From: Escherichia coli
GTDB lineage: Bacteria; Pseudomonadota; Gammaproteobacteria; Enterobacterales; Enterobacteriaceae
Assembly (NCBI RefSeq): GCF_002854065.1
Contig: NZ_CP024147.1
DNA length: 64,000 nucleotides
Strand: one strand, 5' to 3'
Each line of letters starts with the position of its first letter. The stretch's first letter is position 1. Shown here one piece after another: positions 1,722 to 63,968 of the stretch. Under the pieces are notes generated by a model, which was not told the DNA's origin, did not search any database, and saw nothing but the letters and a program-made list of their open reading frames with translations. The position numbers and the translations under genes are program-made.

Positions 1722-1734
1722 TCAGGAGAAAATC

Positions 1735-2031: not shown

Positions 2032-2041
2032 GGAATTTACC

Positions 2042-3958: not shown

Positions 3959-3986
3959 TGTATGATGGTGTTTTTGAGGTGCTCCA

Positions 3987-4262: not shown

Positions 4263-4684
4263 CCTCGCGCATACAGCCGGGCAGTGACGTCATCGTCTGC
4301 GCGGAAATGGACGAACAGTGGGGATACGTCGGGGCTAAATCGCGCCAGCGCTGGCTGTTTTACGCGTATGACAGGCTCCGGAAGACGGTTGTTGCGCACG
4401 TATTCGGTGAACGCACTATGGCGACGCTGGGGCGTCTTATGAGCCTGCTGTCACCCTTTGACGTGGTGATATGGATGACGGATGGCTGGCCGCTGTATGA
4501 ATCCCGCCTGAAGGGAAAGCTGCACGTAATCAGCAAGCGATATACGCAGCGAATTGAGCGGCATAACCTGAATCTGAGGCAGCACTTGGCACGGCTGGGA
4601 CGGAAGTCGCTGTCGTTCTCAAAATCGGTGGAGCTGCATGACAAAGTCATCGGGCATTATCTGAACATAAAACACTATCAATAA
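4181..4684 (+). CDS. insB: IS1 InsB frame (made as InsAB' by -1 frameshift)
   Basis: 167-aa ORF overlapping insA in -1 frame; A6C slippery motif intact. Confidence 0.85.
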
Positions 4685-4699
4685 GTTGGAGTCATTACC

Positions 4700-4708
4700 C
4701 GCGAAGGC
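4700..4708. repeat. 9-bp target site duplication (CGCGAAGGC), right copy
   Basis: Matches 3923-3931. Confidence 0.9.
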
Positions 4709-4786
4709 AACGAAAAAAGCTAATTTATTTATTCATATATGAAAACAATGTAATAAATATTCGAATTGAAGAATTGAAAGAACACC

Positions 4787-4810
4787 AAGCCGCCTGATGG
4801 CGGTTTTTTA
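4787..4810 (+). terminator. Rho-independent terminator-like hairpin
   Basis: GCCGCC-TGAT-GGCGGT stem-loop followed by TTTTTT. Confidence 0.5.
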
Positions 4811-4823
4811 TTGGAGACAAGAA

Positions 4824-5168
4824 ATGTCAGATTTGGCTATGAAGGTTTTGAAATGGCAATCGACTGGCGATGTCGGCATCAGTAGCGCAACTCTTGCCTC
4901 AATCGCATGTGGCCTGAAAAAGAATATCTATGGTCATCACTTCGGCGCTCCCCATGACGCAGCAGACTTTCGGCGATGCGTTGCACTTGTTGAGCAGATT
5001 CCAGAAATCAGAGATTCATTCGACAAGGTTGCAAAGCGCGTTCCGGCATTCAAAGGAATCCTCAACGAATGGGATTCACTCGTTGCTCTGTTGAAGTCTG
5101 AAATGAAGACGTACGGGAACAAAGCACCAGAGACTTACAGAAGAATCAGCGAGCTACGCAAGGACTAA
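4824..5168 (+). CDS. Hypothetical protein (114 aa), prophage cargo
   Basis: ATG at 4824 with GGAGA RBS directly after the terminator; no recognisable motif. Confidence 0.45.
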   Translation: MSDLAMKVLKWQSTGDVGISSATLASIACGLKKNIYGHHFGAPHDAADFRRCVALVEQIPEIRDSFDKVAKRVPAFKGILNEWDSLVALLKSEMKTYGNKAPETYRRISELRKD

Positions 5169-8525: not shown

Positions 8526-9505
8526 CTACGGGCGAACATACAACATCCACGACGCGCACCACACGCCGAGAATCATAAATACCAGGCCAATCCAGCCCTG
8601 CCAGGTCATCATCGCCGTCATCACCAAACCGTTGCCGATCGAGCAGCCGCCGGCAATGCTGGCACCGAAGCCCATCAGTACGCCGCCACCCGCGCTACGC
8701 AGCGTGGTGCTGGCATCGGCAGCGCGGACGCGGAATTCACGGCTGGCTTTCGCGGCAATAAACGAACCGATAAAGATTCCCAGCACCAGGAAGACGCCCC
8801 AGTTGAGGTACTTGCTGTCACCCCCCACCAGGAACTGCAGGATATTGGCGGTCGGCGAGGTAATGCCAAGGCCAAACATACGTCCGGTGGCCTCACTCAG
8901 CGGCCAGGCCAGCAGGGCGATAAGGCCAATCAGCACGGCGGTCACAAACGGATGCCAACGCTTTTCAAACAGCAGATGCGCCAGGCCAGTGCGGCGCGGC
9001 GGCAGAGAAGCTACTTTGAGCTTTGGTTTGCTCAGCTCTTTGCGAACAAACCACAGGGTCACCGCCACCAGCAGAACGATAAGTGGCCAGACGGAGATAT
9101 TCAGGGTTTCGGCAATGCCGTTGTGAGTGGTCGTGTGTTGACCGAGGAATTTGTTAAGCCCAGCCGCGTGCGGTGAACGCATGATCGCGCTCATCACCAT
9201 ATAGGTGACCAGTGCAATCCAGCTGCCAATCAGCCCTTCCCCGGCACGATACCAGGTGCCGGTGGCGCAGCCTCCCGCATAAACGATACCGATACCAAAA
9301 ACAAATCCACCCACCACGGTGCCAAGCCACGGGAACGCGCCTGCATCGTACTGCACCAGGCCAAGCTGGATCAGGGCGAACACGCCGATACTCTGGATAC
9401 AGATAGCAATCAACAGTGCGTAAAACATGCGGTTATTTTTGGTGATATACATATCGCGAAAGCCACCCGTCAGGCAGAAACGACCGCGCTGCATAACGAA
9501 TCCCA
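8526..9505 (-). pseudogene. yeeE: yeeE (tsuA) thiosulfate transporter, 3' portion from codon ~18 onward, separated from its 5' end by IS1
   Basis: Homology to YeeE begins at ...GFVMQRGRFCLTGGFRDMY; codons upstream of 9505 run directly into the IS1 end at 9506. Confidence 0.85.
9497..9505. repeat. 9-bp target site duplication (CGAATCCCA), left copy
   Basis: Identical 9-mer at 10274-10282 abutting the other IS1 end. Confidence 0.9.
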
Positions 9506-9560
9506 GGTGATGCTGCCAACTTACTGATTTAGTGTATGATGGTGTTTTTGAGGTGCTCCA

Positions 9561-9836
9561 GTGGCTTCTGTTTCTATCAGCTGTCCCTCCTGTTCAGCTA
9601 CTGACGGGGTGGTGCGTAACGGCAAAAGCACCGCCGGACATCAGCGCTATCTCTGCTCTCACTGCCGTAAAACATGGCAACTGCAGTTCACTTACACCGC
9701 TTCTCAACCCGGTACGCACCAGAAAATCATTGATATGGCCATGAATGGCGTTGGATGCCGGGCAACTGCCCGCATTATGGGCGTTGGCCTCAACACGATT
9801 TTACGTCACTTAAAAAACTCAGGCCGCAGTCGGTAA
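9561..9836 (+). CDS. insA: IS1 InsA
   Basis: 91 aa. Confidence 0.9.
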
Positions 9837-10258
9837 CCTCGCGCATACAGCCGGGCAGTGACGTCATCGTCTGCGCGGAAATGGACGAACAGTGGGGCTA
9901 TGTCGGGGCTAAATCGCGCCAGCGCTGGCTGTTTTACGCGTATGACAGTCTCCGGAAGACGGTTGTTGCGCACGTATTCGGTGAACGCACTATGGCGACG
10001 CTGGGGCGTCTTATGAGCCTGCTGTCACCCTTTGACGTGGTGATATGGATGACGGATGGCTGGCCGCTGTATGAATCCCGCCTGAAGGGAAAGCTGCACG
10101 TAATCAGCAAGCGATATACGCAGCGAATTGAGCGGCATAACCTGAATCTGAGGCAGCACCTGGCACGGCTGGGACGGAAGTCGCTGTCGTTCTCAAAATC
10201 GGTGGAGCTGCATGACAAAGTCATCGGGCATTATCTGAACATAAAACACTATCAATAA
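9755..10258 (+). CDS. insB: IS1 InsB frame
   Basis: 167 aa; A6C motif intact. Confidence 0.85.
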
Positions 10259-46499: not shown

Positions 46500-47894
46500 T
46501 CAGTAGGCTGCTTTGTTGACAAAGCCTTTGAATACCGTCAGGAAGACGATCTTGATATCGAGCCACAGGCTCCACTCGCGGATGTATTCGAGATCGAACT
46601 CCACCCGTTTTTCCATCTTCTCGAGGGTATCGGTTTCACCGCGCCAGCCGTTGATCTGCGCCCAGCCGGTAATACCAGGCTTCACTTTGTGGCGCAGCAT
46701 GTAGCCTTCAATCAGTTGACGGTACTGTTCGTTGTGCGCCACCGCGTGCGGACGCGGGCCGACGATAGACATGCCGCCGGTGAGCACGTTGATAAACTGC
46801 GGCAATTCATCCAGCGAGGTGCGGCGCAGGAAGTTGCCGACACGGGTCACACGCGGGTCGTTTTGCGTCGCCTGTTTCACCACCTTGTCGTTCTCCATGA
46901 CCTTCATCGAGCGGAATTTCCACACTTTGATCGGCTTACCATCCATACCGTAGCGGGTCTGGCGGAAGATGATGGGGCCCGGCGAACTCAGCTTCACCGC
47001 CAGCGCGATACAGCACAGCGCAGGCGAAATCAGCAGCAGAATGCCCAGCGCCAACACGATATCCTCCAGCCGTTTGATAATACGATTCACCCCGGAGAGC
47101 GGCGTGTCGTACAGCGGCACCAGCGGAATACCGTTCACCACCTCTACGCGTGAATGCAGGATGTTGAAGGTGAAAACATCCGGGATCAGCAGCACCGAGC
47201 AGGTGGTGTCGGCGAGAGAACGGACCACCTCTTTAATCTGGCTCTCTTCCTGCATCGCCATCGAGATGTAGACGTTGTGGATTTTGCCGCTGCGGGCATC
47301 GTCGAGTAGTTGTTCAAGATTGCCCATCCAGTCGGCGTTAACGCCGCCTGGTTTAGCATCGTAATAGCTGCCGACCACTTCATAGCCCAGCCACGGCTGG
47401 TTGCGGAAGCTTTCGAGCAGCGCCTGCCCTTCCGGCATGTCCCCGGCGACGGCCACATAGCGGGTGTTATAGCCGCGATGGCGCAGCATGCCAGCGCCGT
47501 AGCGAATGAACGCGCGGCTCGCCAGCATGCCGATGGTGCTAATCAGATACCACGCCAGCCACATGGTAAAGTTGGTATTAAAATCATCGTTAAACGCCAG
47601 CAGTCCGGCGGCAAACACCAGGCTCAGCGTCCAGTTCTGCAACAGCAGCAGCAATTCGGTGGTGATACGCACGCCGCGCCAGGAGCGGTAGAAATCGGTA
47701 ATCCCGCCAATCATCTGGAAAACGACCAGCGTCACCAGCGCCATCAACAGATGGAGATATAAAAACGGCAACGCAACCGCCTGACACACCAGCCACAATC
47801 CCCCCAACATGATGGTGATGTCGGAAAAACGCTGCACCATGGAGATTAACGATGCATTCGTTTTAGCTCGTTCGCGCTTTTTTAGAGTCGTCAT
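46500..47894 (-). CDS. wcaJ: Undecaprenyl-phosphate glucose phosphotransferase WcaJ
   Basis: Start at MTTLKKRERAKTN (464 aa); the 43-codon 5' extension in the ORF track is read-through of an intergenic repeat. Confidence 0.9.
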   Translation of the reverse strand: MTTLKKRERAKTNASLISMVQRFSDITIMLGGLWLVCQAVALPFLYLHLLMALVTLVVFQMIGGITDFYRSWRGVRITTELLLLLQNWTLSLVFAAGLLAFNDDFNTNFTMWLAWYLISTIGMLASRAFIRYGAGMLRHRGYNTRYVAVAGDMPEGQALLESFRNQPWLGYEVVGSYYDAKPGGVNADWMGNLEQLLDDARSGKIHNVYISMAMQEESQIKEVVRSLADTTCSVLLIPDVFTFNILHSRVEVVNGIPLVPLYDTPLSGVNRIIKRLEDIVLALGILLLISPALCCIALAVKLSSPGPIIFRQTRYGMDGKPIKVWKFRSMKVMENDKVVKQATQNDPRVTRVGNFLRRTSLDELPQFINVLTGGMSIVGPRPHAVAHNEQYRQLIEGYMLRHKVKPGITGWAQINGWRGETDTLEKMEKRVEFDLEYIREWSLWLDIKIVFLTVFKGFVNKAAY

Positions 47895-47916
47895 CGTTGG
47901 TCCTATTCGTCGTTTC

Positions 47917-48020
47917 CCTTCACCCCGCCTCTCTCCCCAAAGGGGCGAGGGAGAAAAACCAATCCGCAGCCTGCACGTTCGGTTCCCTCTCCTCTCTGGG
48001 GAGAGGGTTAGGGTGAGGGG
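47917..48020. repeat. Intergenic GGGGAGAGGG-type palindromic repeat (REP-like), copy A
   Basis: CACCCCGCCTCTCTCCCCAAAGGGGCGAGGGAG...CCCTCTCCTCTCTGGGGAGAGGGTTAGGGTGAGGGG; inverted near-copy at 59855-59946. Confidence 0.7.
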
Positions 48021-48026
48021 CAATAA

Positions 48027-49397
48027 TTACTGATTAAGCAACGCCAGAATGTCCTGCGTTCGCGCCTGCATCAGCGGCGTATTTCCGCGAGACTCCACGT
48101 TTAAGCGCACCACCGGTTCGGTATTGGAAGAACGCAGGTTGAAGCGCCAGTCGGCAAACGCCAGGCTGATGCCGTCAGTACGGTCGATCTCCAGCGCGCT
48201 GCCGGCAAAGTGTGCTTCCACGCGGGCAATCGCTTCTGACGGTGCCGCCAGATGACTGTTGATTTCACCGCTCGCCGGGAACGCCGCCATGCGGTCGCGC
48301 ACCAGTTCACCCAACGTTTTGCCCTTCAGGCACAGCAGTTCGCTGACCAGCAGCCAGGGGATCATGCCGCTGTCGCAGTAGGCAAAATCACGGAAGTAGT
48401 GGTGAGCGCTCATTTCACCGCCGTAAACCGCGTCGTCCTGACGCATGCGCTCTTTAATAAAGGCATGACCAGTTTTCGACATCACTGGCGTGCCGCCCGC
48501 CGCCGTGACGACGTCCACGGTGTTCCACGACAGACGCGGGTCGTGAATGATGCGCGCGCCGGGGTTCTTTTCGAGGAAGGCTTCCGCCAGCAGGCCGACG
48601 ATGTAGTAGCCCTCGATAAACTGCCCTTTCTCGTCGAACAGGAAGCAGCGGTCGAAGTCGCCATCAAAAGCGATACCCATATCGGCACCGTATTTGATGA
48701 CCGCATCGCGGGTATCCGCGCGGCACTCCGGCAGCAGCGGGTTAGGAATACCGTGCGGGAAGGTTCCGTCCGGGGTGTTGTGCACTTTGATCAGGTTCAC
48801 CGGCACATTCAGCGCTTTGAAGCGGGCTTCCAGCGCGTCAATCACCGGGCCTGCCGCGCCGTTACCGGAGTTCACCACCAACTTCAGCGGCGTCAGGTTT
48901 TGCACGTTGATGTAGCCCAGCAGGTGGTCGATATAGGCGTCACGCAGGTTGATTTTCTGGTAGCTACCGCGCGCGGCCTCATTGACCGGCGGGAAGTCGT
49001 TGGCTTCCGCCAGGCGCTGTACGTCGCGCAGGCCGGTATCGCCGCTGATGGGGCGTGCGCCTTCCCGCACCAGCTTCATGCCGTTGTAATCCATCGGGTT
49101 ATGGCTGGCGGTCACTTCGATACCGCCATCAACGCCGAGATGGAAGGTGGCGAAGTAAATCTCTTCGGTGCCGGAAAGCCCGATATCGAGCACGTCAACG
49201 CCCGCGTCGCGCAGGCCATTGGCTAACGCCAGTTTCAGCGCCTCGCTGGTCAAGCGCACATCGCCGCCCAGCACGATAATTTTCGGCTTCAGATATTCAC
49301 CGTAAGCGCGGCCAATGCGCCACGCGATGTCTTCATTCAGCTCTTCACCGAGCTTGCCGCGGATGTCGTAGGCTTTAAAACAGGTTAATTTCGTCAT
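48027..49397 (-). CDS. cpsG: Phosphomannomutase
   Basis: Start at [14 protein letters not shown]; TASHNP active-site motif. Confidence 0.9.
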
Positions 49398-49500
49398 GTT
49401 TTTACCTTTCTTCAGGCAACAGTTCGCCCTGACCGTTATGGCCATCAATTTTGGTGTCGTGATTTGCCGGATGCGCCGCGCTTATCCGGCCAGCCGGGCG

Positions 49501-50937
49501 CTACACGCGCCCGTAACGATCCTGGAAACGCACCACGTCGTCCTCTTCCAGATAGGCGCCAGATCGCACCTCAATCAGGTCGAGCGGGATTTTCCCCGGG
49601 TTTTCCAGGCAGTGGGTGACGCCAAGGGGGATATAGATAGATTCGTTCTCACCCAGCAGCGTAATTTGGTCATTGAGAGTGACTTTGGCGGTGCCCGCCA
49701 CCACGATCCAGTGTTCCGCCCGGTGGTGATGCATCTGCAGCGACAGCCCTTCCCCCGGCTTCACGGTGATGCGCTTAACCTGATAGCGATCGCCGGAATC
49801 AATCGAGTCATACTTGCCCCACGGGCGGTAGACTTCCCGGTGGATGTGGTGTTCGTGGCGGCCGTCGGCCTTAATCTTCTCGACCACCTTTTTCACGTCC
49901 TGCACCGCGTTGCGATCGGCGATAAGCACCGCGTCTTTGGTTTGCACCACCACCAGGTCCTTTACCCCGACGGTCGTCACCAGGCCAGACTCTGCATAGA
50001 CATAGCTGTTTTCGGTTTTATGGCTGATGACATCGCCATGGTGCACGTTGCCTTCCGGCGTATGGTTGCTTATCTCCCACAGCGATGACCAGGAGCCGAC
50101 ATCGCTCCAGCCCGCGTCCATCGGCACCACTACCGCATCCGCGGTCTGCTCCATCACCGCATAATCGATGGATTCGTCCGGGCAGCTCAGGAACGCCGCT
50201 TCATCGACGCGGATAAAGTCGAGATCCGGGTCGGTGACGTCCATCGCTTTTTCGCAGGCGCGAAGAATATCCGGGCGATATTTGCCCAGCTCTTCCAGAT
50301 AGCGCCCGGCGCGGAACAGGAACATGCCGCTGTTCCAGTAATATTCACCGCTGGCGACATAGGCCTGTGCGGTATCGAGATTGGGTTTTTCGACAAACTG
50401 CGCGACGTCGAAGGCCAGCGTGTCGTCGGTACCCGGCGTGACATCACCACGGCGAATATAGCCGTAGCCGGTTTCCGGCACGTTCGGCACGATACCGAAG
50501 GTCACCAGCTTGCCATTTTCAGCATACGGCGTGGCATGACGAACCGCCGCGCGGAAGGCCTCTTCGTCCTGAATCACATGGTCCGCCGCCAGCACCAGCA
50601 TCAGCGGGTCGCAGTCCGGTTCGCGACGCTTAGCCGCCAGCGCCGCCAGGGCGATGGCTGGCGCCGTGTTGCGCCCTGCCGGTTCCAGAATAATGTTTTC
50701 GGTCAGCTTGTTGAGTTGACGCAGCTGTTCCGCCACGATAAAGCGGTGTTGCTCATTGCAGATCACCACCGGGCTGGCGCACTTCACGCCGTCCAGCCGG
50801 TTCACCGTGGCCTGCAGCATGGTCATGTCCCCTTTCAGGCACAGGAACTGTTTGGGGTACAGCACTCTGGACAGCGGCCACAGTCGGCTACCCGAGCCAC
50901 CGGCCATCACGACCGGGAAAAGCGTAGTTTGACTCAT
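49501..50937 (-). CDS. cpsB: Mannose-1-phosphate guanylyltransferase
   Basis: 478 aa [24 protein letters not shown]... Confidence 0.9.
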
Positions 50938-50940
50938 CGT

Positions 50941-52164
50941 TTAACCCCGAATATCAGCAATAAATTGGTTGAGAACGTGTTCTTTATCGAGCGAACGTTC
51001 GGCCCAGGCGCGGGCGACCGCATTTCGCTTCGGCATCTTCAGCGCCTGCTCAATCCCTTCCACCAGCGACGGAACCGATTCAGGCGTCACGCACACCGCA
51101 ATGCCCGGATTGTCCAGACATAGCTGGCCCAGCTCGGTCTGCAGTTCAGCGGTAATCACCGCGTTGCCGCCCACCGCCAGAATATTGGTCAGCTTGGAAG
51201 GCAACACCGCATCCGCGGCGCCACGCTTCTGAATCACCAGATGGCAGTCGCCAATCGCCAGCAGCGCGGGTAAATCTTCGTACGACTGCAGCGGCAGGAA
51301 CTTGACGTTATCCAGCCCGCGTTCGGCGACCATTTTTTCCAGCCGCGCTTTACCGCCGCCCTGACCGACAATGGCAAACAGCCACGGCTGTTCACGTAGC
51401 TGTTCGGCGGCAGTAATCACGCTCTCCAGCCCCTGTTTCTCACCGATATTGCCGGAGTAGAGAATAATTTTGCGTTCATCCGGCAGGCCAAGACGCTGAC
51501 GCAGCGCCATCACCAGCGTTTCCGGCACCTCGCGAAAACGGGAAACTTCCGACCAGTTGGGGAAGAAAATCACCTTCTCCGGCGCAACGCCCTTCTCGCA
51601 GGCTTTGTTCATCATTGAGCGCGAGATGGTCGATACGTTGTCAACGTTGTGCAGCCCGCTACGCTCAAAGGCGCTGGCAAGTTTTGCCACCTTGCCGGCG
51701 CGACCGTTGCCTGCCATGCCCAACCCCAGCATGGCGTCGACTTCATAATCCTGAATATGCAGCAGCGTCCGCGCGCCGGAGAGCTTCGCCAGCAGGCGCA
51801 TACCGGGGGTGCAGAACAGCGTCGGCACTACGCCGATAATGCGATCCGGCTTCCAGCGGCGTTGGGCCATCAGCGGGAAGAAACTGCTGAGCGCAAAGCT
51901 GCCGAGATGGATCAAACGCTTCAGCGTCGACAGCTGCTTTGGCACATACAGCGGGCAGCGCCAGACGGTGGCATCGCCGTTTTCCCGGCGGTAACGCCAG
52001 CTTGAGTATTTCGCGCCAACCTGCCATTCCGGATAGTACGGCGGCGCGGTAATCACTCGCACCTCGTGACCCTGCTGCACCATCCACTCGACCATTTCGC
52101 CGGTGTATTTGCCGATGCCGGTGAGTTCAGGCGAATAGTTGATGCCATACACCAGAATCTTCAT
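50941..52164 (-). CDS. wcaI: Colanic acid glycosyltransferase WcaI
   Basis: 407 aa GT1; synteny. Confidence 0.85.
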
Positions 52165-52640
52165 AGGCCCTGCACCTCGGCCAATTTGTCGACCCGGAAA
52201 TAGGCGCGGCTGTTTTCATGAACGTTGTCCGACGCCAGTAACGCAGGCGGTGTCAGCCAACGGTACTCATTATGCTGATCGTCCGGCAGCGTTAAGGTCC
52301 CGGCGTCCACCTGCAGGCGGAAACCAAGCACAATGTAATGGGTCGAAAAATCCGTACCGCAGAAATTCTCGTCATAGAAATGCTGCCAGACTCCGTAAAA
52401 GCGGCCTGCCGTCATCGGCAGGCTCAGCCCCAGTTCGGCCTCGGTCAGGCGGGCAAACGCCTGTTCCAGCGTTTCATCTTTCTGTACCCGCCCGCCCGGC
52501 ACAAACCAGTACCCCTGCGCCGGACGATTGTTGCGCTTACCCAGCAAAAACTCGCCCTGCGCGTTCTCGACGATCAAATCGATGGAGATCAGCGGCGTAG
52601 ACTGCACCACGGTGGCAAACGCTTCCTGGCTCAGAAACAT
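52161..52640 (-). CDS. gmm: GDP-mannose mannosyl hydrolase (Nudix)
   Basis: 159 aa Nudix protein; synteny between wcaI and fcl. Confidence 0.85.
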
Positions 52641-52643
52641 GCG

Positions 52644-53609
52644 TTACCCCCGGAAGCGGTGCTGGCTTTCCAGAAACCACTGGTAAGTGCTGGCAAGACC
52701 AGCCTCCAGCGAGATTTCGTGGTACCAGCCCAGTTGATGCAGGCGAGAAACATCGAGCAGCTTGCGCGGCGTGCCGTCGGGTTTGGTGGCATCAAACACC
52801 ACCCGCCCTTTAAAGCCCACCACTTTCACCATCGTCTGCGCCAGTTCACGAATGGTGCAGTCAACGCCGGTGCCAACGTTAATATGCGACAGCATAGGCT
52901 GCGTGTTTTCGAGCCAGACGCCGCGATCCAGCTCCATCACATGGATACTGGCAGCCGCCATATCGTCCACATGCAGGAACTCGCGCATCGGCGTGCCGCT
53001 CCCCCACACCACCACGTCCGCGGCGTTTTGCTGTACCGCTTCATGGAAGCGGCGCATCAGCGCCGGAATAACGTGCGAATTGCTCGGGTGGAAGTTATCG
53101 TTCGGCCCGTACAGGTTGGTCGGCATCACCGAGCGATAGTCGCGATTATGCTGGCGGTTGTAGGACTCGCACAGCTTGATACCGGCAATTTTCGCAATCG
53201 CGTACGGTTCGTTAGTCGCTTCCAGCGTGCCCTGCAGCAGCTCGCTTTCGTGCATTGGCTGGTTAGCCATTTTCGGATAGATGCACGATGAACCGAGAAA
53301 CAGCAGCTTATTCACGTTGTGCGTATGCGCCGCGTGAATAATGTTGCTTTCAATCATCATGTTCTCGTAGATGAAATCCGCCGGGAAGGTGTTGTTGGCC
53401 ACAATGCCGCCCACCTTTGCCGCCGCCAGATACACCTGATCAATATTTTCAGCGGCGAAGAAGTCGTTCACTTCGCGGCTATCCAGCAGGTTGAGCTCAT
53501 CGCGGCCGCGAACCACCAGATCCACGTCGCCGCGTTGTGCAAGCTGTCGGACGATGGCCGAGCCCACCATTCCCCGGTGGCCCGCCACAAAAATACGTTG
53601 TCTGGTCAT
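52644..53609 (-). CDS. fcl: GDP-L-fucose synthase
   Basis: 321 aa [23 protein letters not shown]... Confidence 0.9.
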
Positions 53610-53611
53610 AC

Positions 53612-54733
53612 TTAAGACTCCAGCGCGATCGCCACTTCATAACCGTGGGATTTCAGCAGGGAATGTTTCTTCGCTGCTTCCAGGTCTTTGGCGACCATTT
53701 CAGATACCATCTCCTGCAGGGTGGTTTCCGGTTTCCAGCCGAGTTTTTCATGCGCTTTGGTCGGGTCGCCGAGCAGGGTTTCAACTTCTGCCGGACGGAA
53801 GTAGCGCGGATCCACGGCCACCATCACATCGCCCGGTTTCACGCCCGGCGCATCGTGACCGGTGACGGAAACGACAATCCCTTTTTCTTCCACGCCTTTA
53901 CCTTCAAAGCGCAGTTTAATACCCAGCTGTGCCGCCGCCATTTCGACGAACTGGCGAACCGAATACTGCACGCCGGTGGCGATAACGAAATCTTCCGGAT
54001 GGTCCTGTTGCAGCATCATCCACTGCATTTTCACGTAGTCTTTGGCGTGGCCCCAGTCGCGCAGAGAATCCATGTTGCCGAGGTACAGGCACTTCTCCAG
54101 GCCCTGAGCGATGTTAGCGATCGCACGGGTGATTTTACGCGTCACAAAGGTTTCGCCGCGGCGCGGAGACTCGTGGTTGAACAGGATGCCGTTACAGGCG
54201 TACATGTCGTAAGATTCACGGTAGTTGACGGTGATCCAGTAGGCATACAGTTTGGCGACCGCATACGGCGAGCGCGGATAGAACGGAGTGGTCTCTTTTT
54301 GTGGAATTTCCTGCACCAGGCCGTACAGTTCCGAAGTGGAAGCCTGATAGAAACGCGTTTTCTTCTCCAGCCCTAGGAAGCGGATGGCTTCCAGCAGACG
54401 CAGCGTGCCCATCGCATCCACGTCGGCGGTATATTCCGGCGACTCAAACGACACGGCAACGTGGCTCATTGCGCCGAGGTTATACACTTCATCCGGCTGC
54501 ACTTCCTGCAGAATGCGCGTCAGGTTGGAGCTGTCGGTCAAATCACCGTAGTGCAGGTGAAATTTCGGGTTGCTGCTGTGCGGATCCTGATAGATGTGAT
54601 CGACACGTTCGGTGTTAAAGGAAGAAGCACGGCGTTTAATCCCGTGAACTTCATAGCCTTTTTCCAGCAGCAGTTCTGCCAGATAAGAACCGTCCTGCCC
54701 CGTTACGCCGGTAATAAGTGCGACTTTTGACAT
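53612..54733 (-). CDS. gmd: GDP-mannose 4,6-dehydratase
   Basis: 373 aa [31 protein letters not shown]... Confidence 0.95.
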
Positions 54734-54757
54734 TCTATTTTCCTCAAATTGTCCCGT

Positions 54758-55312
54758 TTAGGGAGTCACTTTCTCTACGCGCTCACGCGTAACCACTGCG
54801 GGATTGCCACGGCAAATCATATTTGCCGGTAGCGATTTAAAAACGCTGCTGCGGGCACCGACGATTGTGCCCTCGCCAATCGTGACGCCGGGGGCAACAA
54901 AAACATCTGTCGCCAGCCAGCATTTCTCACCAACCACAATCGGCGCAGCGTTAATATCGAAATGCGCGCTCTGATAATCGTGGCTGCCGGTGCACAAATA
55001 GCATTTCTGCGAAACCACCGAATTTGCCCCAAGGGTTATTTCACCCAAGGTATATAACACTGCCTCATCGCCCACCCAGGCATAATCTCCAATGGTTAAT
55101 TTCCATGGGTAAGTGATTTTTACCGACGGGCGAATGACTACGTTTTTTCCTATTTTTGCGCCAAACAGACGTAATAAAAATGCGCGCCAGCGATACAATA
55201 TCTGTGGAGACCAGGCAAATAATGTGGCCTGAACCGCCCACCATATTTGTACTTTTATGCCCCCGGCGCCGCGAAAACCTTTTGGTACCGAAAAGCCCGA
55301 TAATTCCTGCAT
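54758..55312 (-). CDS. wcaF: Colanic acid acetyltransferase WcaF
   Basis: 184-aa hexapeptide-repeat acetyltransferase; synteny. Confidence 0.85.
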   Translation of the reverse strand: MQELSGFSVPKGFRGAGGIKVQIWWAVQATLFAWSPQILYRWRAFLLRLFGAKIGKNVVIRPSVKITYPWKLTIGDYAWVGDEAVLYTLGEITLGANSVVSQKCYLCTGSHDYQSAHFDINAAPIVVGEKCWLATDVFVAPGVTIGEGTIVGARSSVFKSLPANMICRGNPAVVTRERVEKVTP

Positions 55313-55321
55313 TTGGTATCC

Positions 55322-56068
55322 TTATGCTTTGTGATATAAGGCTTTTGCTTTCCCCGTTGTGCGCAGACGTAATAAATAAGATAATTCTGCAAGCAGGCCC
55401 GGCATACGTAATATTTCACGCTGCACTTTTTTTGCATCCTGGCACAACTGTAGATTATTTGTGGTGGACACGCCGCCCATCGAAAATTCCGACACCAAGC
55501 CTTTAATACGTTTAAAGGCATATCCCGACTTATACATCCGCGCCGCCAGCGCATAATCAGAAGAGACACGATACTGCACATCATAAGGATGATTTTTCAG
55601 CCCACGCAGCGGGAAGAAAATAGCCTGATGGCTAGCCGGTAGGCTGTGATAAATATACCAACCCTGCTTAGCGCTACGGCGAATCTGGGTGCCGTCGCCA
55701 AAGTCCAGCATCGCATCGCCAAGGTACATGGCATCATCGCTTTTACCGCGCAGCTGACGGACGAACTGCGACACATCCGGATGAAAGCTGTCGCCGGAAT
55801 TCAGAAACAGCACAAACTTGCCCTGCGCCATGCGGATGCCTTTGTTCATCGCATCGTAAAGCCCTTTATCCGGTTCGCTGACGTAGCGTAAGTGGTACTG
55901 GCCGTTACGTTTTTCGAGGAACTCTGCGGTGCCATCGTTAGAACCGCCATCCACCACAATCCACTCGAAAGTGAGGCTGGGATCGTTTGCCAGATGGGCC
56001 AGAGAACGCCAGGTTTTCACCACGCCATCAACGTTACGAAACGCGACGGTAACCACGCTTAACAACAT
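55322..56068 (-). CDS. wcaE: Colanic acid glycosyltransferase WcaE
   Basis: 248-aa GT2; synteny. Confidence 0.85.
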
Positions 56069-56076
56069 GCTTCACC

Positions 56077-57300
56077 TCATCTGCTGTCAGCAATATTCAG
56101 CGCTTTACGCAGAATAAAAGGACAAACAATTAAAAATGCATATTCCGGACTAAATATCGAACCGGTAAAAAATAATGATATCGGCGTGAAAAGATACAGC
56201 TGCACGGCGAAATTACGATTATTCCCAAAAGCGTTAATGAACATTTTAAATACGTAGTACAGATACCCAGCCGTTAATATCACAGCGAACCACGAAAAAT
56301 AAATCATTAACAGATACAGACCATTGTCTATGGTTTTACCGACATCCGCACCGTTAAATATTCCGAATGATGCAACATATTCGTAAAGAGAACCAAAACG
56401 CACGACCCCATCAATGCTGGTTAATGAATAACCGACCATCACCAATGGACCAATTATACGGTAATACGATGACGATCCTTCCGTTCCTAAATCACCAATA
56501 CGCTCGGCAATATAGGGGAATGCAAACACCAGACCGATAAAAAATGCGCCTAATGAGATAATCGCCAACGGTAACTTTTTCTTGATCGCTTCTTTGTTCA
56601 GGTACTGGAAAGCCCACTCCAGCAGATAGAACAGGATAAATGTCATAACCCCAGAAAACGATCCAGAAAGAATTATCCCTGCCAGAATCATAGCATCAGA
56701 CTTCGGGGTTTTGATACCAAACTGTTTGATGCAAAGCCAAATTGAGATTAATGCCAGAGCAAAAAATGCCGGTTCGAAATATAACGCAGTGGTGCGCTTT
56801 CCACCGAATTTGATAAAATTCAGCACATAGCTATTACTGTAAATAAGATATTTCGAAATCGTCGCTATCAAACTGCTGCCGCCGGTGAGAATAATCTGCG
56901 CCATCTCCAGCGCCGCCAGCGCCACCACCAGGGTAATCACCACATAGAAAAAACGCAGGATCTTACGGTGGTTATGCGGTGAAATGGTTTTGAAGCGAAT
57001 GCTCCAGACCATGCCGATAATGATCACGATATAGACAAACAGCATCGTCGAGGTGACATATTTGCTGGGGTCCAGCGATTGTCCAAACAGATAGTTGAAC
57101 AACGTCAATCCTACGCCCAGTCCGAGGGCAATCATCAGTTTTTTCAGATTAATGCGTTCAACAAACAACAGCAGCAACAGCGGAAGGAACGTCACAATGG
57201 TAATGGGGAAGCTCTCCCCCAGCTGCGCCAGCTTCACGTTAACCAACAGGTAGATTAACGGCAGCAGCAGATAGCTACAGACTCTGATAGAACGAGACAT
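56077..57300 (-). CDS. wcaD: Colanic acid polymerase WcaD
   Basis: Start at MSRSIRVCSYLL (~407 aa polytopic membrane protein); the 69-codon 5' extension in the ORF track overlaps wcaC and is rejected. Confidence 0.85.
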   Translation of the reverse strand: MSRSIRVCSYLLLPLIYLLVNVKLAQLGESFPITIVTFLPLLLLLFVERINLKKLMIALGLGVGLTLFNYLFGQSLDPSKYVTSTMLFVYIVIIIGMVWSIRFKTISPHNHRKILRFFYVVITLVVALAALEMAQIILTGGSSLIATISKYLIYSNSYVLNFIKFGGKRTTALYFEPAFFALALISIWLCIKQFGIKTPKSDAMILAGIILSGSFSGVMTFILFYLLEWAFQYLNKEAIKKKLPLAIISLGAFFIGLVFAFPYIAERIGDLGTEGSSSYYRIIGPLVMVGYSLTSIDGVVRFGSLYEYVASFGIFNGADVGKTIDNGLYLLMIYFSWFAVILTAGYLYYVFKMFINAFGNNRNFAVQLYLFTPISLFFTGSIFSPEYAFLIVCPFILRKALNIADSR

Positions 57301-58492
57301 ATTCCTCCAGCATCTGTTGTCCGCTGTAAGCTTTGCGGCTACGCGCGCTAAAGTTCTCCAGCGTGGTGCCAAAAATCTGCTCGGCGATCTCCGCTTTCGG
57401 TTGCTGTACCAGGGTGAGCACCTCGGCCTCATCCACCGTATGGCCGCCGGATTTTGCCAGCACCTCTTTTGCCGCCTCGCTATGGGTAGCAATGACCGGC
57501 ACGCCAATCGATAACGCTTCGCACAGAATCAGCGGGTAATTATCTACCCGCGAGCTGAACAGCAGAGCGTCCAACGGGTTCAGTTCGCTCATCAGTTGGC
57601 GTTTATCGGTCAGAAAACCGTGGTTCACCACGTTGCTGCCCTCAAACGGCGAGAACTTACCAAAGGTATGGACCTCGACCTTATCGCCCAGCGCGATAAT
57701 ATCGCGCACCAGCTGCTGGTTGGTTTTGCCGTCATAGCGCAGGTCGTGAGCCACCACGGCGATTTTAGGCCGCGAGGAGAAGCGTTTTACCGGCGTCAGC
57801 TCGGCAAGAATCGCTTCGGTGGCGACGTCGATCCCGTTATTGATAATCTGGCAGCGCCCTGCGCCGTAGAGGCTGTTAAAGGCCTCGGCAACATGCTGAC
57901 TGGGTGAAATAAAACGGCAGCCCAGCGCCAGCATCTGGCGGAAAAGTTGACGTTTTTCATCGACCAGCGCATGTGCGCGATCGACCTTCACCGGCGGGTA
58001 GTTACTCAACGTTGGGCACTTCTGACAGCCGCTTTTCCAGCCTTCGCAGCCGTCAAGAAAGGCACAGCGCCCGGTCACGCTCCAGTGATCGTGCAGCGTC
58101 CAGATAAAAGTCGCATCGCTTTTATGCGCCTTCACCCGCTCGCAGAAGTTCACCACATCCGCCAGATTCAGCCAGTAGCTGTGCATGACGTGAAAATGCA
58201 GTACCACCGGGCCGTCAGTACGGGTGACCTGGCGATACAGGTTATTGAGGTTGCCAAACACATCGCGGTTAAACAGGCGGAACAGCGCCAGGTTCGCCAT
58301 TGAGGTTAACCGTCCGGTCTGCTTCACCACCTGCGGATAACGGTCATGGCTGACGCTCTTCTTACCGCCTTTGCCATAGCCGTAGACAAATTTTGACGAC
58401 AGCCCCTGACGGAGTGCGCGCTGATGCAGATCCAGCGCCACGCCCGCCGCGCCGCCTTCGGCCAGACGGACGTTAAATTGCAGAATATTCAT
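57275..58492 (-). CDS. wcaC: Colanic acid glycosyltransferase WcaC
   Basis: 405 aa GT1; synteny. Confidence 0.85.
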   Translation of the reverse strand: MNILQFNVRLAEGGAAGVALDLHQRALRQGLSSKFVYGYGKGGKKSVSHDRYPQVVKQTGRLTSMANLALFRLFNRDVFGNLNNLYRQVTRTDGPVVLHFHVMHSYWLNLADVVNFCERVKAHKSDATFIWTLHDHWSVTGRCAFLDGCEGWKSGCQKCPTLSNYPPVKVDRAHALVDEKRQLFRQMLALGCRFISPSQHVAEAFNSLYGAGRCQIINNGIDVATEAILAELTPVKRFSSRPKIAVVAHDLRYDGKTNQQLVRDIIALGDKVEVHTFGKFSPFEGSNVVNHGFLTDKRQLMSELNPLDALLFSSRVDNYPLILCEALSIGVPVIATHSEAAKEVLAKSGGHTVDEAEVLTLVQQPKAEIAEQIFGTTLENFSARSRKAYSGQQMLEEYVSFYQSL

Positions 58493-58983
58493 TTGATTAC
58501 CTTCACTCGCGCTTTTTCGCCCACCACCAGCGCATGGTCCGGAACGTCGTCCAGCACCACGCTGCCCGCGCCAATGGTCACGTGGTTACCGATGGTAATA
58601 CCGCCGATAATCATCACGTTGGCCCCCAGCTCAACGCCATCACCAATCCTTGGGCACGCCAGACTCTCCGGGCCGCGATTGCCGATAGTGATGCCGTGAC
58701 GAATCGTGAAATCGTCTCCCGCCACCACGTTTTTATTGATCACCACGGCATAACCGTGGTGGATGGTGAAACGTCGGCCAATGGTCGCCGCCGCCTGGAT
58801 TTCATAGCCGAAGAAACATTCGGTGATAATGCGGTACAGCACCAGCACCGGCGCCGCCCACAGGTTGTTCAGCACATTTTTCTTGCGCCACACCGAGCAA
58901 AAATGAGCCACACGGTAGGCGATCACCATGCAGCAAGGGCGCAGGCTCCAGCTGTTGGCATGTAAATCTTCCAGTAGCATCAT
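58489..58983 (-). CDS. wcaB: Colanic acid acetyltransferase WcaB
   Basis: 164-aa hexapeptide-repeat acetyltransferase; ATGA overlap with wcaA stop. Confidence 0.85.
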   Translation of the reverse strand: MMLLEDLHANSWSLRPCCMVIAYRVAHFCSVWRKKNVLNNLWAAPVLVLYRIITECFFGYEIQAAATIGRRFTIHHGYAVVINKNVVAGDDFTIRHGITIGNRGPESLACPRIGDGVELGANVMIIGGITIGNHVTIGAGSVVLDDVPDHALVVGEKARVKVIK

Positions 58984-59822
58984 TTACTCCGCAGTCCGTC
59001 GACCCAGCGTTTGCCGTTGCGCACCGACAGCAGCGTCAGAAACGTCTTCCAGGTCATGCGCTTATTACGAATTTGATAGAGCGTGAACAGCTGATACTTC
59101 TTACTCGCCCGATCAAACTTCTCTTTGTGCTTGCGGTAGAAGCTGAAGTAGCCGGAAAACTTTTTGGGTGACGAGGTGATCTGCATTTCACCGTGGTTGA
59201 TGTGCAGAATCTGCGTAGCGGCTTCAATCTTCCACGGCTCGCCGTAGGCCACCACCATGCGCAGGAAAATATCGTAGTCCTGCGCCGCCTTCAGTTCGGT
59301 ATCAAACAGGCTTTCTTTAAAACGCCAAGCCCAGCTAAACACCTGATTGCCAATGATGTTGCGCTTATAGAACAACTGACGGGAGAACGGCGATTTCGGG
59401 TACAACGGCAGGCTGGCAGGCTGCGAGTACACCTCCCCTTCGCAGACGTAGTCATCGGCGTACAAAAAGGCGTGATCCATCAATTGCTGTTTATGTTCGA
59501 GAAACAGCGAAAGGCGGTTGGATGTCCACTCATCGTCATCATCAATACCGGTGATAAACTGCCCTTTGGCCTGCAGAATGGCCTGATTGCGTACCGCGCA
59601 TGCTCCGGAGTTAAAATCGTTGCGCGTGTACTGTACGCGGCGATCGTTGAGTTCGATGACAAACTGCTGAAGCTGCTCATAGCTGCTGGAGCAGTCATCG
59701 ACGATAATCATTTCCCAGTGAGGATAGTCCTGACGCAGTACCGATTTGATGGCGCGAATGGCCAGCTGCTGTCGGTTCCAGGTCGGCATATAAATGGAGA
59801 TCAACGGGTTGTCTGTTGTCAT
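58980..59822 (-). CDS. wcaA: Colanic acid glycosyltransferase WcaA
   Basis: Start at MTTDNPLISIYMPTWNRQ (GT2). Confidence 0.85.
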   Translation of the reverse strand: MTTDNPLISIYMPTWNRQQLAIRAIKSVLRQDYPHWEMIIVDDCSSSYEQLQQFVIELNDRRVQYTRNDFNSGACAVRNQAILQAKGQFITGIDDDDEWTSNRLSLFLEHKQQLMDHAFLYADDYVCEGEVYSQPASLPLYPKSPFSRQLFYKRNIIGNQVFSWAWRFKESLFDTELKAAQDYDIFLRMVVAYGEPWKIEAATQILHINHGEMQITSSPKKFSGYFSFYRKHKEKFDRASKKYQLFTLYQIRNKRMTWKTFLTLLSVRNGKRWVDGLRSK

Positions 59823-59854
59823 GGTATATCCCCGAATAAGCGTTTGAGCGGTTG

Positions 59855-59946
59855 TTCCCCTCACCCTAACCCTCTCCCCAGAGGGGAGAGGGGACCGTTC
59901 GGTTTTCTCCCTCGCCCCTTTGGGGAGAGGGCCGGGGTGAGGGGGA
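59855..59946. repeat. Intergenic GGGGAGAGGG-type palindromic repeat (REP-like), copy B, inverted relative to copy A
   Basis: CCCCTCACCCTAACCCTCTCCCCAGAGGGGAGAGGGGACCG...CTCCCTCGCCCCTTTGGGGAGAGGGCCGGGGTGAGGGGG; reverse complement aligns with 47917-48020 apart from an ~18-bp segment. Confidence 0.7.
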
Positions 59947-59951
59947 TGTTA

Positions 59952-62114
59952 TTATTTCGAATCCGACTGATACTCGTACTCGTAGTACCCGTAATCCTGG
60001 TATCCCGTCGCGCGGCGGAAGATCGAGTTGAGGATAACCCCTTTCACCGCAATGCCATTCTGCTCAAAGCGGCTCAGGCTGGTTTCTACTTCCTTCAGGG
60101 TGTTAACCGCATAGCGCGTGACCATCAAGGTGGTGCCCGCGTGGCGACCAACGATAGCGGCATCGGTAACCGCGAGAATCGGCGGCGTATCGATCAGCAC
60201 CAGGTCATAGTTCGCTGAACCCCACTTCAGCAGCTCGCTAAAGCGCTCGGCCATCAACAGCTCCGACGGATTTGGCGGGATCTGCCCGCGCGGGATCAGG
60301 TCAAAGTTGGCAACCGACGTCCGTTTCGCGCTGCTTTCAAACGCCGCTTTCCCCACCAGCACCTCGGACAGGCCGTTATCATTGGTGGTGCCGAGCAGTT
60401 CGTGGGAATAGCCTTTACGCATATCGCAGTCGATCATCAGTACGCGCTTATGGGTCTGGCTGATCACCGCCGCCAGGTTGGCGCAGACGAAGGTTTTACC
60501 GATAGACGGGCTGACCCCGGTCATCATCAGCACGTTGTTCGGCGCCTGCATCATGGCGAAGTGCAGGCTGGTGCGCAGGCTGCGAATGGCTTCGATCGCC
60601 AGGTCGGTCGGGTTACCCACCGCCAGTAGCTGGCTCTGCTTATAGCGCTTCACACCGTTGACGCTCTTCACGCTATCGCGCGATTTTTGCCACTCGGAGA
60701 GCGGAATGCTGGCATAAACATTGATGCCATGCTCTTCGAGCACCTGTGGGCTTTCGATACCGCGGTTAAACAGCGAGCGCAGCAGCACGCCGACGATCGA
60801 CAACATCAGGCCGAGAATAATGCTGCCCAGCACGATCAACGCTTTCTTCGGCTTCACCACCCCCGGCTGAGTAATTGCCGGGTCGACAATCCGCACATCG
60901 CCGACGGTACTCGCCCGGGTGATTTTCAGCTCCTGCTGTTTATTCAGCAGTTGCATATAAACCTGTTGACCAGACTCCACGTCACGGGTCAGGCGTACAA
61001 TCTCCTGCTGGGTTTTCGGCATCGCCGTCACGCGTTTGCTCAGCTTGGCCTTCTCTTCTTCCAGCGCCCGGCGTTTTTCCAGCAACGTGCGATAGGCCGG
61101 GTGGATGCGGGTATACAGCTTGGAGATTTCCGCTTCGCGGAACGTCAGCTCGTTCAGCTGCGCGTCGATGTTCACCATCGAATCGAGCACCGATTTCGCT
61201 TCCAGCGGCAGGTCTACGGAGTCTTGCTGCTGACGGTAGGTATTCAGTTTGTTTTCCGCCACGTCCAACTGGCTGCGCACCTGTGGCAGCTGCACTTCGA
61301 GGAACTCGAGGCTTTTCGCGGCTTCTTCCGATTTGCGCGCCACGTTCTGCGCCACGTAGTTGTTGGCGATACTGTTGAGGATGTCGCGGATCTGATCTTT
61401 GTCTTCACCCACCATCGTGAGCGTCAGCACACCGGACTCTTTACCATCCTCGGTGACGCTCAGGCTATTTTGCAGGTTATTGATCATCCCCAATGTTGAA
61501 TATTTGGTGACGGTAAAACTCGCGCCATCGTGGGCGGCGATCCCGGTAACCAGCAGCGAAACGCCGCCTTTATTCAGCGTCTCCCCGACCTTCCCTTCTG
61601 CGCTAAAACCGTCGTCGTTGCTCAGGCGATAGCGCGTTGGGTTGATAACCTCCAGCGTAAAGGTGCTGTCGGCCATCGAGGCCGGGCGATTAAAGGCGCT
61701 GACCTTCACCGTCTCATTCTGGCGGCCCATCAGCCGTTCCCAGCCCGCCCCCAGAATCGGAAAGGTGTTTTTGCTCACGGCAATATCCAGCCCCAGATCC
61801 TCAACGGTTTTCCCGAGCACCATACGCGAGGTGATCATCTGGATTTCCGCCTCGGAGGCCGGCGGCTTGCTGGTGAGCGCGTTGCTGATATCCTGCACCA
61901 GCGCGCTGCCCTGATTTTGCTCAATGCGCACCAGTGCGTCGGCGCTGTAAATCGGCGTGGCGAACAGCGCGTAGACAATCGCCAGCGCGGCAAACAGGGC
62001 GGTAATGCCGATGACCCACCATTTGGCTTCCACCACGGTGCCCACAAGGCGACCAATGTCGATCTCATCGTTGCCCGAGACCGATGGGCTTATCTGTTTT
62101 ACTTTATCTGTCAT
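59952..62114 (-). CDS. wzc: Tyrosine autokinase / polysaccharide co-polymerase Wzc
   Basis: Start at MTDKVKQ; Walker A SPSIGKT; C-terminal tyrosine-rich tail YGYYEYEY. Confidence 0.95.
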   Translation of the reverse strand: MTDKVKQISPSVSGNDEIDIGRLVGTVVEAKWWVIGITALFAALAIVYALFATPIYSADALVRIEQNQGSALVQDISNALTSKPPASEAEIQMITSRMVLGKTVEDLGLDIAVSKNTFPILGAGWERLMGRQNETVKVSAFNRPASMADSTFTLEVINPTRYRLSNDDGFSAEGKVGETLNKGGVSLLVTGIAAHDGASFTVTKYSTLGMINNLQNSLSVTEDGKESGVLTLTMVGEDKDQIRDILNSIANNYVAQNVARKSEEAAKSLEFLEVQLPQVRSQLDVAENKLNTYRQQQDSVDLPLEAKSVLDSMVNIDAQLNELTFREAEISKLYTRIHPAYRTLLEKRRALEEEKAKLSKRVTAMPKTQQEIVRLTRDVESGQQVYMQLLNKQQELKITRASTVGDVRIVDPAITQPGVVKPKKALIVLGSIILGLMLSIVGVLLRSLFNRGIESPQVLEEHGINVYASIPLSEWQKSRDSVKSVNGVKRYKQSQLLAVGNPTDLAIEAIRSLRTSLHFAMMQAPNNVLMMTGVSPSIGKTFVCANLAAVISQTHKRVLMIDCDMRKGYSHELLGTTNDNGLSEVLVGKAAFESSAKRTSVANFDLIPRGQIPPNPSELLMAERFSELLKWGSANYDLVLIDTPPILAVTDAAIVGRHAGTTLMVTRYAVNTLKEVETSLSRFEQNGIAVKGVILNSIFRRATGYQDYGYYEYEYQSDSK

Positions 62115-63885: not shown

Positions 63886-63921
63886 CATGCTACTGCCCTT
63901 GGCTTTCAGCTACCAATTCAC
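63886..63921 (-). promoter_or_regulatory. Degenerate JUMPstart-like element upstream of wza (ops-like GGCAGTAGCAT)
   Basis: Minus-strand GTGAATTGGTAGCTGAAAGCCAAGGGCAGTAGCATG resembles the JUMPstart consensus with several mismatches, including two in ops. Confidence 0.4.
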
Positions 63922-63968
63922 CTAAAAATCATGTTGTTATAGGAAACCCACCCATTCATAAAAAGAAT

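Follow-up and report, generated by a model that had tools for sequence, protein, structure and literature searches.

Two inverted BoxC repeat pairs in the colanic acid operon of an Escherichia coli strain are probably ordinary, coincidentally placed members of a dispersed family

In this study we consider two palindromic repeats in the colanic acid (cps) cluster of Escherichia coli, located in a stretch of 64,000 nucleotides from contig NZ_CP024147.1 (NCBI RefSeq assembly GCF_002854065.1), which we refer to as the window. The first, copy A, lies between cpsG (manB) and wcaJ, a gap that we call site A; the second, copy B, lies between wzc and wcaA, at site B. An earlier note on this DNA, made from the letters alone, had proposed that the two copies bracket the manB...wcaA block in opposite orientations and form RNA hairpins within the cps transcript. 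Judging by their sequence, copies A and B are almost certainly independent members of the BoxC family, also known as PIT (potential intrastrand triplex) or TM_ECO, and thus an element kind catalogued since the 1990s. The best overall explanation, to which we give a probability of about 0.78, is that they are ordinary BoxC pairs, that their flanking of the block is coincidental, and that they act at most as stable hairpins in the manner of the repetitive extragenic palindrome (REP).

Results

Architecture of the two copies

Both copies were found at the coordinates given in the earlier note; with their parts, they are as follows.

47913..48023, minus strand: copy A, a BoxC pair filling the cpsG/wcaJ gap (47895-48026); repeat search, alignment and direct reading
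47916..47951, minus strand: unit 1 of copy A, reading CCCTCGCCCCTTTGGGGAGAGAGGCGGGGTGAAGGG on this strand; repeat and regular-expression search against Table 1 of PMC4666352
47952..47984, no strand: central spacer of copy A, 33 nt, including the A-only bases 47963-47979; alignment and fold
47985..48020, plus strand: unit 2 of copy A, type A (TTA loop), CCCTCTCCTCTCTGGGGAGAGGGTTAGGGTGAGGGG; repeat and regular-expression search against Table 1 of PMC4666352
59855..59946, plus strand: copy B, a BoxC pair within the wzc/wcaA gap (59823-59951); repeat search and alignment
59857..59892, minus strand: unit 1 of copy B, a perfect type A, reading CCCTCTCCCCTCTGGGGAGAGGGTTAGGGTGAGGGG on this strand; repeat and regular-expression search
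59893..59908, no strand: central spacer of copy B, 16 nt, GACCGTTCGGTTTTCT; distance between the repeat arms
59909..59944, plus strand: unit 2 of copy B, type 'B mm', CCCTCGCCCCTTTGGGGAGAGGGCCGGGGTGAGGGG; sequence against Table 1 of PMC4666352

A repeat search of the window paired 47916-47962 with 59898-59944 (47 nt, 89% identity) and 47980-48020 with 59857-59897 (41 nt, 95%) as inverted arms, bearing out the description of two related, inverted and internally palindromic copies. In direct orientation the similarity is weaker (82-84%), and it is still good because each copy is itself an imperfect palindrome, with self-complementary stretches of 40 nt at 78% in A and 36 nt at 86% in B. When A was aligned with the reverse complement of B using MAFFT, the two were collinear apart from 17 bases that only A possesses (47963-47979, TCCGCAGCCTGCACGTT), located within its central spacer, where a small apical hairpin is predicted; a segment private to A had been noted before, at a length of about 18. 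The core CCCTCTCCCC-NNN-GGGGAGAGGG occurs four times in the 64-kb window, twice in each copy, against 0.00 occurrences expected from 100 shuffles, and a looser regular expression for the whole 36-nt unit found no further copy in the window outside A and B, as the earlier note had stated. Its own counter-hypothesis, a chance similarity of low-complexity G/C runs, deserves no credence: the sequence is compositionally simple, with C- and G-runs, but the core count and the long, well-matched arms speak against chance, and E. coli genomes together contain tens of thousands of occurrences of the same 36-nt unit.

Comparison of many pairs yielded an oriented composite, consisting of a type-A unit in reverse complement, GGGRACYG, a spacer, GGTTTTCT and a type-B unit. 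Copy B has this canonical orientation on the plus strand, antisense to the mRNA, while copy A has it on the minus strand, the mRNA sense, in the form type-A unit'-GGGAACCG...GGTTTTTCT-type-B-like unit. The inversion of A relative to B is therefore genuine, rather than a mere likeness of two palindromes.

Membership in the BoxC family

A full-text search for GGGGAGAGGG led us to Holder et al. 2015 (PMC4666352), where BoxC / PIT / TM_ECO units are described and 23 of them are listed for strain MG1655 (Table 1); the family is further documented by Bergler 1992, Bachellier in the 1990s, and Hoyne & Maher 2000 and 2002, and BoxC is counted among the known E. coli stem-loop families by Petrillo et al. 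2008. The published unit comprises 34-37 nt with the pattern CCCTC(T/G)CCC(C), a 3-5-nt loop, (G)GGGAGAGGG, a 3-nt loop and GGGTGAGGG(G) (PMC4666352), that is, one pyrimidine and one purine block followed by a G-rich third block. Three of the four units in the window fit this pattern, namely 47985-48020 on the plus strand, 59857-59892 on the minus strand and 59909-59944 on the plus strand, the last being letter-identical to MG1655 TM_ECO no. 3. The fourth, 47916-47951 on the minus strand, fits with one indel and one mismatch and is a degenerate type B, the indel affecting the purine block and loop and the mismatch the third block. According to Holder et al. (PMC4666352), a TTA second loop defines type A and a CCG loop type B, and units always pair as one A and one B in inverted arrangement, as do all five MG1655 pairs. 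Copy B likewise combines type A with type B mm, and copy A combines type A with the degenerate B-like unit. The palindromic repeat recognised in the earlier note was thus real, but its family had been missed.

Nothing essential separates the window copies from the family: they share its three-block unit, its TTA and CCG loops and its A+B inverted pairing, and the family is likewise strictly intergenic, multi-copy and dispersed. The differences are of detail. K-12 lacks these two insertion sites within the colanic acid operon, none of the 23 MG1655 units being near the cps cluster; copy A has a degenerate left unit; and in both window pairs the third blocks lie on the outside (tail-out), whereas four of the five MG1655 pairs are tail-in according to the Table 1 coordinates. 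The tail-out pair of K-12 (TM_ECO 17+18), which we read in the K-12-type strain 1FA (L088:1201-1329), begins 10 nt past the lldD stop, between the co-directional genes lldD and trmL, in the same placement as in the window's cps operon.

The family extends across the species. A 101-nt query around copy B, serving the genome-wide search suggested by the earlier note, matched 5425 of the 5426 complete E. coli genomes, at a median of 20 places in each; of the 106,043 places, 105,995 were chromosomal and 48 on plasmids, and among the matches listed all lay in unannotated DNA. Both window copies, too, are intergenic, between annotated coding sequences. None of the five matches of an Rfam scan of the window overlaps A or B, and Rfam has no BoxC model.

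The third block GGGTGAGGGG can be laid antiparallel to the purine block GGGGAGAGGG with exclusively G.G, A.A and T.A contacts in three of the four units (5'-GGGGAGAGGG-3' against 3'-GGGGAGTGGG-5'), the degenerate left unit of A having one disruption. The isolated G-rich strand of identical or near-identical units forms an intrastrand DNA triplex in vitro, as seen by circular dichroism and nuclear magnetic resonance (NMR) (Holder et al., PMC4666352). Published work on the family, on the other hand, detected no triplex in duplex DNA or by in vivo footprinting, and RNA cannot form purine-motif triplexes. We also considered a G-quadruplex reading of GGGGAGAGGGTTAGGGTGAGGGG, which fits four repeats of G3N3, and rejected it, as NMR excluded this structure for the DNA oligonucleotide (Holder et al., PMC4666352).

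In size (~90-110 bp), terminal inverted repeats (CCCCTCACCC...GGGTGAGGGG in BoxC), potential for a long RNA hairpin and intergenic insertion in either orientation, BoxC pairs resemble miniature inverted-repeat transposable elements such as ERIC/IRU, Correia/NEMIS and RUP. They appear to differ from these in showing no flanking direct repeat: by eye, no target-site duplication was visible at A or B, nor in a comparison of filled with 'empty' sites, which is blurred by the other hairpins or REPs that the latter hold. Holder et al. found the family not to be associated with mobile elements (PMC4666352). REP elements are mobilised by a transposase family, RAYT. For BoxC, we know of no cognate or mobilising transposase and of no parent element.

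Operon context and RNA folding

The genes adjoining the two copies, in RefSeq annotation converted to window positions, and the upstream control element are listed here.

46500..47894, minus strand: wcaJ, following copy A on the transcript; RefSeq
48027..49397, minus strand: cpsG (manB), stop codon 48027-48029; RefSeq
58980..59822, minus strand: wcaA, following copy B on the transcript; RefSeq
59952..62114, minus strand: wzc; RefSeq
63886..63923, minus strand: JUMPstart upstream of wza; RF01707, 41.4 bits

Copy A almost fills the 132-nt cpsG/wcaJ gap, its hairpin starting 6 nt downstream of the cpsG stop on the mRNA. The wzc/wcaA gap, which contains copy B, comprises 129 nt; wzc ends with tandem in-frame stops, TAA TAA (59954-59949, minus strand), right before the BoxC hairpin, and the C-run of copy B starts 6 nt past the first of them. 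The repeats distort mechanical gene calls, as the earlier note had pointed out: the longest wcaJ reading frame (46500-48023) encodes 507 amino acids, compared to 464 in RefSeq, the 43-codon extension being an artefact, and the mechanical wcaA frame is likewise extended by 14 codons into copy B. RefSeq itself was not misled.

Since a JUMPstart/ops element lies upstream of wza, both repeats would be part of the long RfaH-type antiterminated cps transcript. On the transcript strand, the minimum free energy is -64.8 kcal/mol for gap A (z -4.8) and -76.8 kcal/mol for gap B (z -6.6), in line with the stable hairpins that had been expected there. Each gap folds as one long hairpin, with local hairpins of -10.6 to -20.4 kcal/mol each within the pairs, and the stem-loops end 24-32 nt before the next start codon. 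Neither hairpin is followed by a U-run on the transcript strand, where B continues with AACAACCGCUCAAACGC and A with AAACGACGAAUAGG, so that the combination of hairpin and U-run typical of an intrinsic terminator is missing (tails AACAACCGCUC... and AAACGACGAAU...). A scan with terminator and promoter consensus models called neither copy. In the summary given in PMC4666352, Hoyne & Maher 2002 found neither promoter nor terminator activity for the family, in assays that may have used single units instead of pairs. With no U-tract, no terminator call and negative published assays, the copies are unlikely to terminate transcription, and the suggestion in the earlier note that they are partial terminators finds little favour.

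A related proposal would have them act as transcriptional attenuators, which only RfaH-modified polymerase reads through, as in the group 1 capsule operons of E. coli K30 and Klebsiella. There, a stem-loop occupies the same place, immediately downstream of wzc in a polysaccharide operon under RfaH/JUMPstart control, and copy B corresponds in position to the predicted attenuator of Klebsiella cps (PMC3438125); the great stability of the hairpins and the upstream JUMPstart agree with such a role. The capsule stem-loops, however, are described as Rho-independent, attenuator-like structures of about -8 kcal/mol (PMC3438125), whereas the BoxC pairs are some ten times more stable and lack the U-tract, and together with the negative terminator scan this makes attenuation improbable.

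The window contains several further elements. A second JUMPstart (RF01707; 39716-39754, minus strand) lies upstream of the O-antigen genes, and an algC RNA motif (RF02929, 55.8 bits; 49402-49451, minus strand) occupies the cpsB/cpsG gap just upstream of cpsG. The his operon leader (RF00514; 13248-13369, plus strand) and the small RNA STnc240 (RF02074; 12025-12101, minus strand) are found beside the his operon, as expected. Window positions 1-5000 hold prophage-type genes (Rad52-family, ssb and anti-RecBCD, by the annotation of matching records); a copy of IS1 lies at ~3932-4699, and an IS1 fragment at ~9500-10000, beside a tyrosine recombinase gene near sbcB/tsuAB.

Independent occupancy of the two sites

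Site B, queried with a junction-spanning sequence, is filled in five of 5426 E. coli genomes. Site A is filled in 17, comprising the same five and twelve that carry a 77%-identical 'L37-type' copy; strain L37 itself has a BoxC pair at A and a K-12-like REP at B. Moreover, BoxC pairs at other places in other E. coli genomes match copy B (90-93%) just as well as copy A does. Because the two sites are filled independently across genomes, A and B do not constitute one unit, and the opposite-orientation flanking of manB...wcaA, which the earlier note had read as bracketing, looks coincidental. The positions of the copies can instead be attributed to the family lodging, like REP, in the few intergenic gaps that the operon tolerates.

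In K-12 and O157, the wzc/wcaA gap holds one classical REP (GCCGGATGCGGCGTGAACGCCTTATCCGGCCTAC; 409-500 of the extracted loci), and the K-12 cpsG/wcaJ gap, of 54 nt, has a 10-bp hairpin, CCCTTACCCC/GGGGTAAGGG. Most E. coli have a single REP in the wzc/wcaA gap and some a REP pair, with gap lengths of 92, 128 or 177 nt; repeats of two unrelated families have thus settled in this gap, depending on the lineage. Neither window gap contains a REP motif: the REP consensus, GCC(G/T)GATGCG(G/A)CG... in an imperfect palindrome of 35-40 nt, does not describe the copies, and a loose REP expression gave scattered near-matches in the window, nearly all in coding sequence, which we judged uninformative. REP (also PU or BIME) is, like BoxC, palindromic, intergenic and transcribed within operons, but its sequence is unrelated (GCCGGATGCGGCG... 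compared to CCCTCTCCCC... in BoxC) and its hairpins fall well short of those of BoxC in length and stability, the K-12 gap folding at -30.5 kcal/mol compared to -76.8 for copy B.

The window is 100% identical to E. coli CUWW06 (NZ_CP182139); strains 100416, EC24, MEI4BO-21 and SY3626 have the block as well. Its cps cluster is uniformly ~78% identical to that of K-12, and its his operon is ~82.5% identical to those of 5419 E. coli genomes, which marks the region as foreign. A WcaE scan of 100,044 species genomes placed the nearest cps cluster in Kluyvera genomosp. 1, with Wzc, WcaA, CpsG and WcaJ at 93-96% amino-acid identity and the DNA at 85.6% over 18.7 kb, suggesting that the whole region may be a Kluyvera-like import. 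Compared to nearly all E. coli, the stretch from ~6800 to 64000, continuing up to ~10 kb past the right end (sbcB-his-O antigen-colanic acid), reaches an identity of only 78-83%, and just 4-6 of the 5426 genomes share it at 99% or more; mdtAB, located 12-16 kb beyond that end of the window, shows an ordinary 95-97%. By these identities, 57 kb or more around an O52-type (wzm/wzt) O-antigen locus seem to have been replaced from another species.

One might suppose, then, that the repeats act at the DNA level, as inverted copies 11.9 kb apart with triplex potential that delimit an invertible or exchangeable manB...wcaA module or serve as hot spots of instability. Sequence variability around TM_ECO loci does exceed that at control intergenic sites (Holder et al., PMC4666352), the cps/rfb region is known as a hot spot of recombination, and the window is itself a foreign block. 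Yet the gene order between the sites is collinear in 24 of 24 loci, the arms are just 41-47 nt long at 89-95% identity, an inversion would break the operon, and, as mentioned above, footprinting saw no triplex in vivo. As recombination junctions we reject the repeats, given that divergence from K-12 is uniform across both sites and that the mosaic junction of L37, where identity drops from 97-99% to 75-82%, lies in wcaF/gmd and not at a repeat. Altogether, a recombinational role is very improbable.

The same gaps in related genera

Both gaps were extracted from 21 non-E. coli loci (19 for site A). Ten of the 21 loci have BoxC units at site B, and 10 of the 19 have them at site A. The pairs, in one orientation or the other, come from around ten further enterobacterial genera, among them Kluyvera, Pseudocitrobacter, Superficieibacter, Pluralibacter and several Enterobacter. 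Sites A and B account for 38 of the 46 unit detections in the 21 loci; the other eight include units in the wcaF/gmd and cpsB/cpsG gaps. The wcaF/gmd gap is BoxC-occupied in three genera (L010:11304-11560, L011:11347-11384, L012:11348-11385), and Superficieibacter also has units in the cpsB/cpsG gap (L010:16958-17065). Where site B lacks BoxC, there is a REP (in Citrobacter and Cedecea) or a degenerate hairpin, or else the gap is empty (16-28 nt). The composite at site B is oriented one way in Kluyvera, Pseudocitrobacter and Enterobacter and the opposite way in the window, RIT691 and Pluralibacter.

At site A, loci without BoxC units have a short polypyrimidine/polypurine hairpin, for example GCCCTCTCTTCGGAGAGGGC in P. 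vulneris and CCTCTCCCCGATGTCGGGGAGGGG in Bisph1. These short hairpins (L006, L014, L018-L020, L028-L030) have stems of ~8-11 bp and lie 20-30 nt upstream of wcaJ. An alignment of eight of them gave a consensus stem of nine pairs, with double-sided changes at four, and modest individual z-scores (-0.7 to -3.6). They could be remnants of an ancient pair or selected hairpins.

The pairs themselves vary in their interior. In Superficieibacter electus, the 350-nt gap at site B (L010:5895-6250) contains outer BoxC arms that enclose three to four tandem inner modules of ~70 nt, each a hairpin plus spacer, and two inner modules occur in Enterobacter ENT03 (site B) and Enterobacter Ag1 (site A). It appears that the interior of a BoxC pair can be amplified.

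The recurrence of hairpins in these gaps brings up another explanation, by which a stable hairpin after wzc and after cpsG is required, as selected RNA 'punctuation', in the colanic acid operons across the Enterobacteriaceae, with BoxC pairs, REPs and solo BoxC-like hairpins as interchangeable suppliers of the structure. Such a hairpin would set the stoichiometry between the export genes, the sugar-nucleotide/glycosyltransferase block and the genes from wcaJ onward; it could do so by segmental mRNA stability or by ribosome stalling at a stop codon no more than 15 nt from the hairpin. Liang, Rudd and Deutscher reportedly described stalling of this kind, at stop codons within 15 nt of a REP, in 2015 (Mol Cell). 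In favour of this explanation, a hairpin is found at site A in 22 of 22 loci, full BoxC in the 10 non-E. coli loci mentioned and stems of 10-11 bp in the rest, with the double-sided changes noted above; site B is often occupied by BoxC or, in E. coli, Citrobacter and Cedecea, by REP; the hairpins begin 6 nt past the stops in the window and BoxC begins ~6-27 nt past the stop in most orthologues; and the region upstream of wcaJ, ACAGGAACAACG, stays unpaired. Against it, site B is nearly empty (16-28 nt) in P. vulneris, Escherichia sp. ESNIH1, Enterobacter Ag1 and Citrobacter FP75, its composite occurs in both orientations, the sense strand has no folding advantage (see below), and the z-scores of the short hairpins are modest. 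BoxC is also present in the wcaF/gmd and cpsB/cpsG gaps of some genera, as would be expected for opportunistic spread, and deletion could have reduced former pairs to the short hairpins, by the 'palindrome effect' that Holder et al. describe (PMC4666352). We therefore consider a required punctuation unlikely.

Discussion

Our results favour ordinary BoxC pairs that settled here as opportunistic palindromic DNA repeats. What these might do to the cps mRNA is best approached by way of REP, whose documented role as a stabiliser of mRNA 3' ends is the closest functional analogy, and a natural one, as a REP occupies the same wzc/wcaA gap in K-12. Newbury, Higgins and colleagues are said to have found in 1987 that a REP inside an operon, between malE and malF, is a barrier to 3'->5' exonucleases. 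By the same token, each BoxC pair, transcribed within the long RfaH/JUMPstart-type cps mRNA, would form its stem-loop of -65 to -77 kcal/mol just past the upstream stop codon and could impede 3'->5' exonucleases, protecting the upstream mRNA segment. This might modestly skew the relative expression of wza-wzb-wzc, wcaA...cpsG and wcaJ...wcaM, with no termination of transcription. An incidental exonuclease barrier of this sort is the likeliest effect. That the pairs measurably affect the stability of mRNA segments has a little less than an even chance, and that they have been kept by selection for such an effect seems doubtful.

Several observations weigh against the explanation that we prefer, that is, incidental BoxC pairs with at most a REP-like effect. 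Its assumption of coincidence and neutrality is challenged by the BoxC-flavoured hairpin of ~10 bp that all 22 loci have upstream of wcaJ, with some compensatory changes, and whose universality at site A hints at selection. The step from stable hairpin to exonuclease barrier, in turn, leans on the analogy to REP, and Holder et al. (PMC4666352) and Hoyne & Maher found the family to have no general regulatory role. Finally, among 42 orthologous gaps the sense strand was the more stable in 18 and the antisense strand in 22 (Wilcoxon p 0.93, a weak test); as antisense folds as well as sense, there is no RNA-specific (G.U) signature.

The main outcome of this work is the removal of a false lead, since the 'GGGGAGAGGG-type palindromic repeat' belongs to BoxC, a family that hardly any E. 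coli genome lacks. For annotators, it carries the warning that longest-frame calls of wcaJ and wcaA extend into the repeats. The comparative gain is modest: the same two gaps hold BoxC in many genera, REP in most E. coli and short BoxC-like hairpins elsewhere, which makes the colanic acid operon a convenient natural experiment on the effects of repeats in polycistronic mRNAs. Should the hairpins prove to be selected punctuation after all, BoxC would gain its first concrete role after 30 years without a known function.

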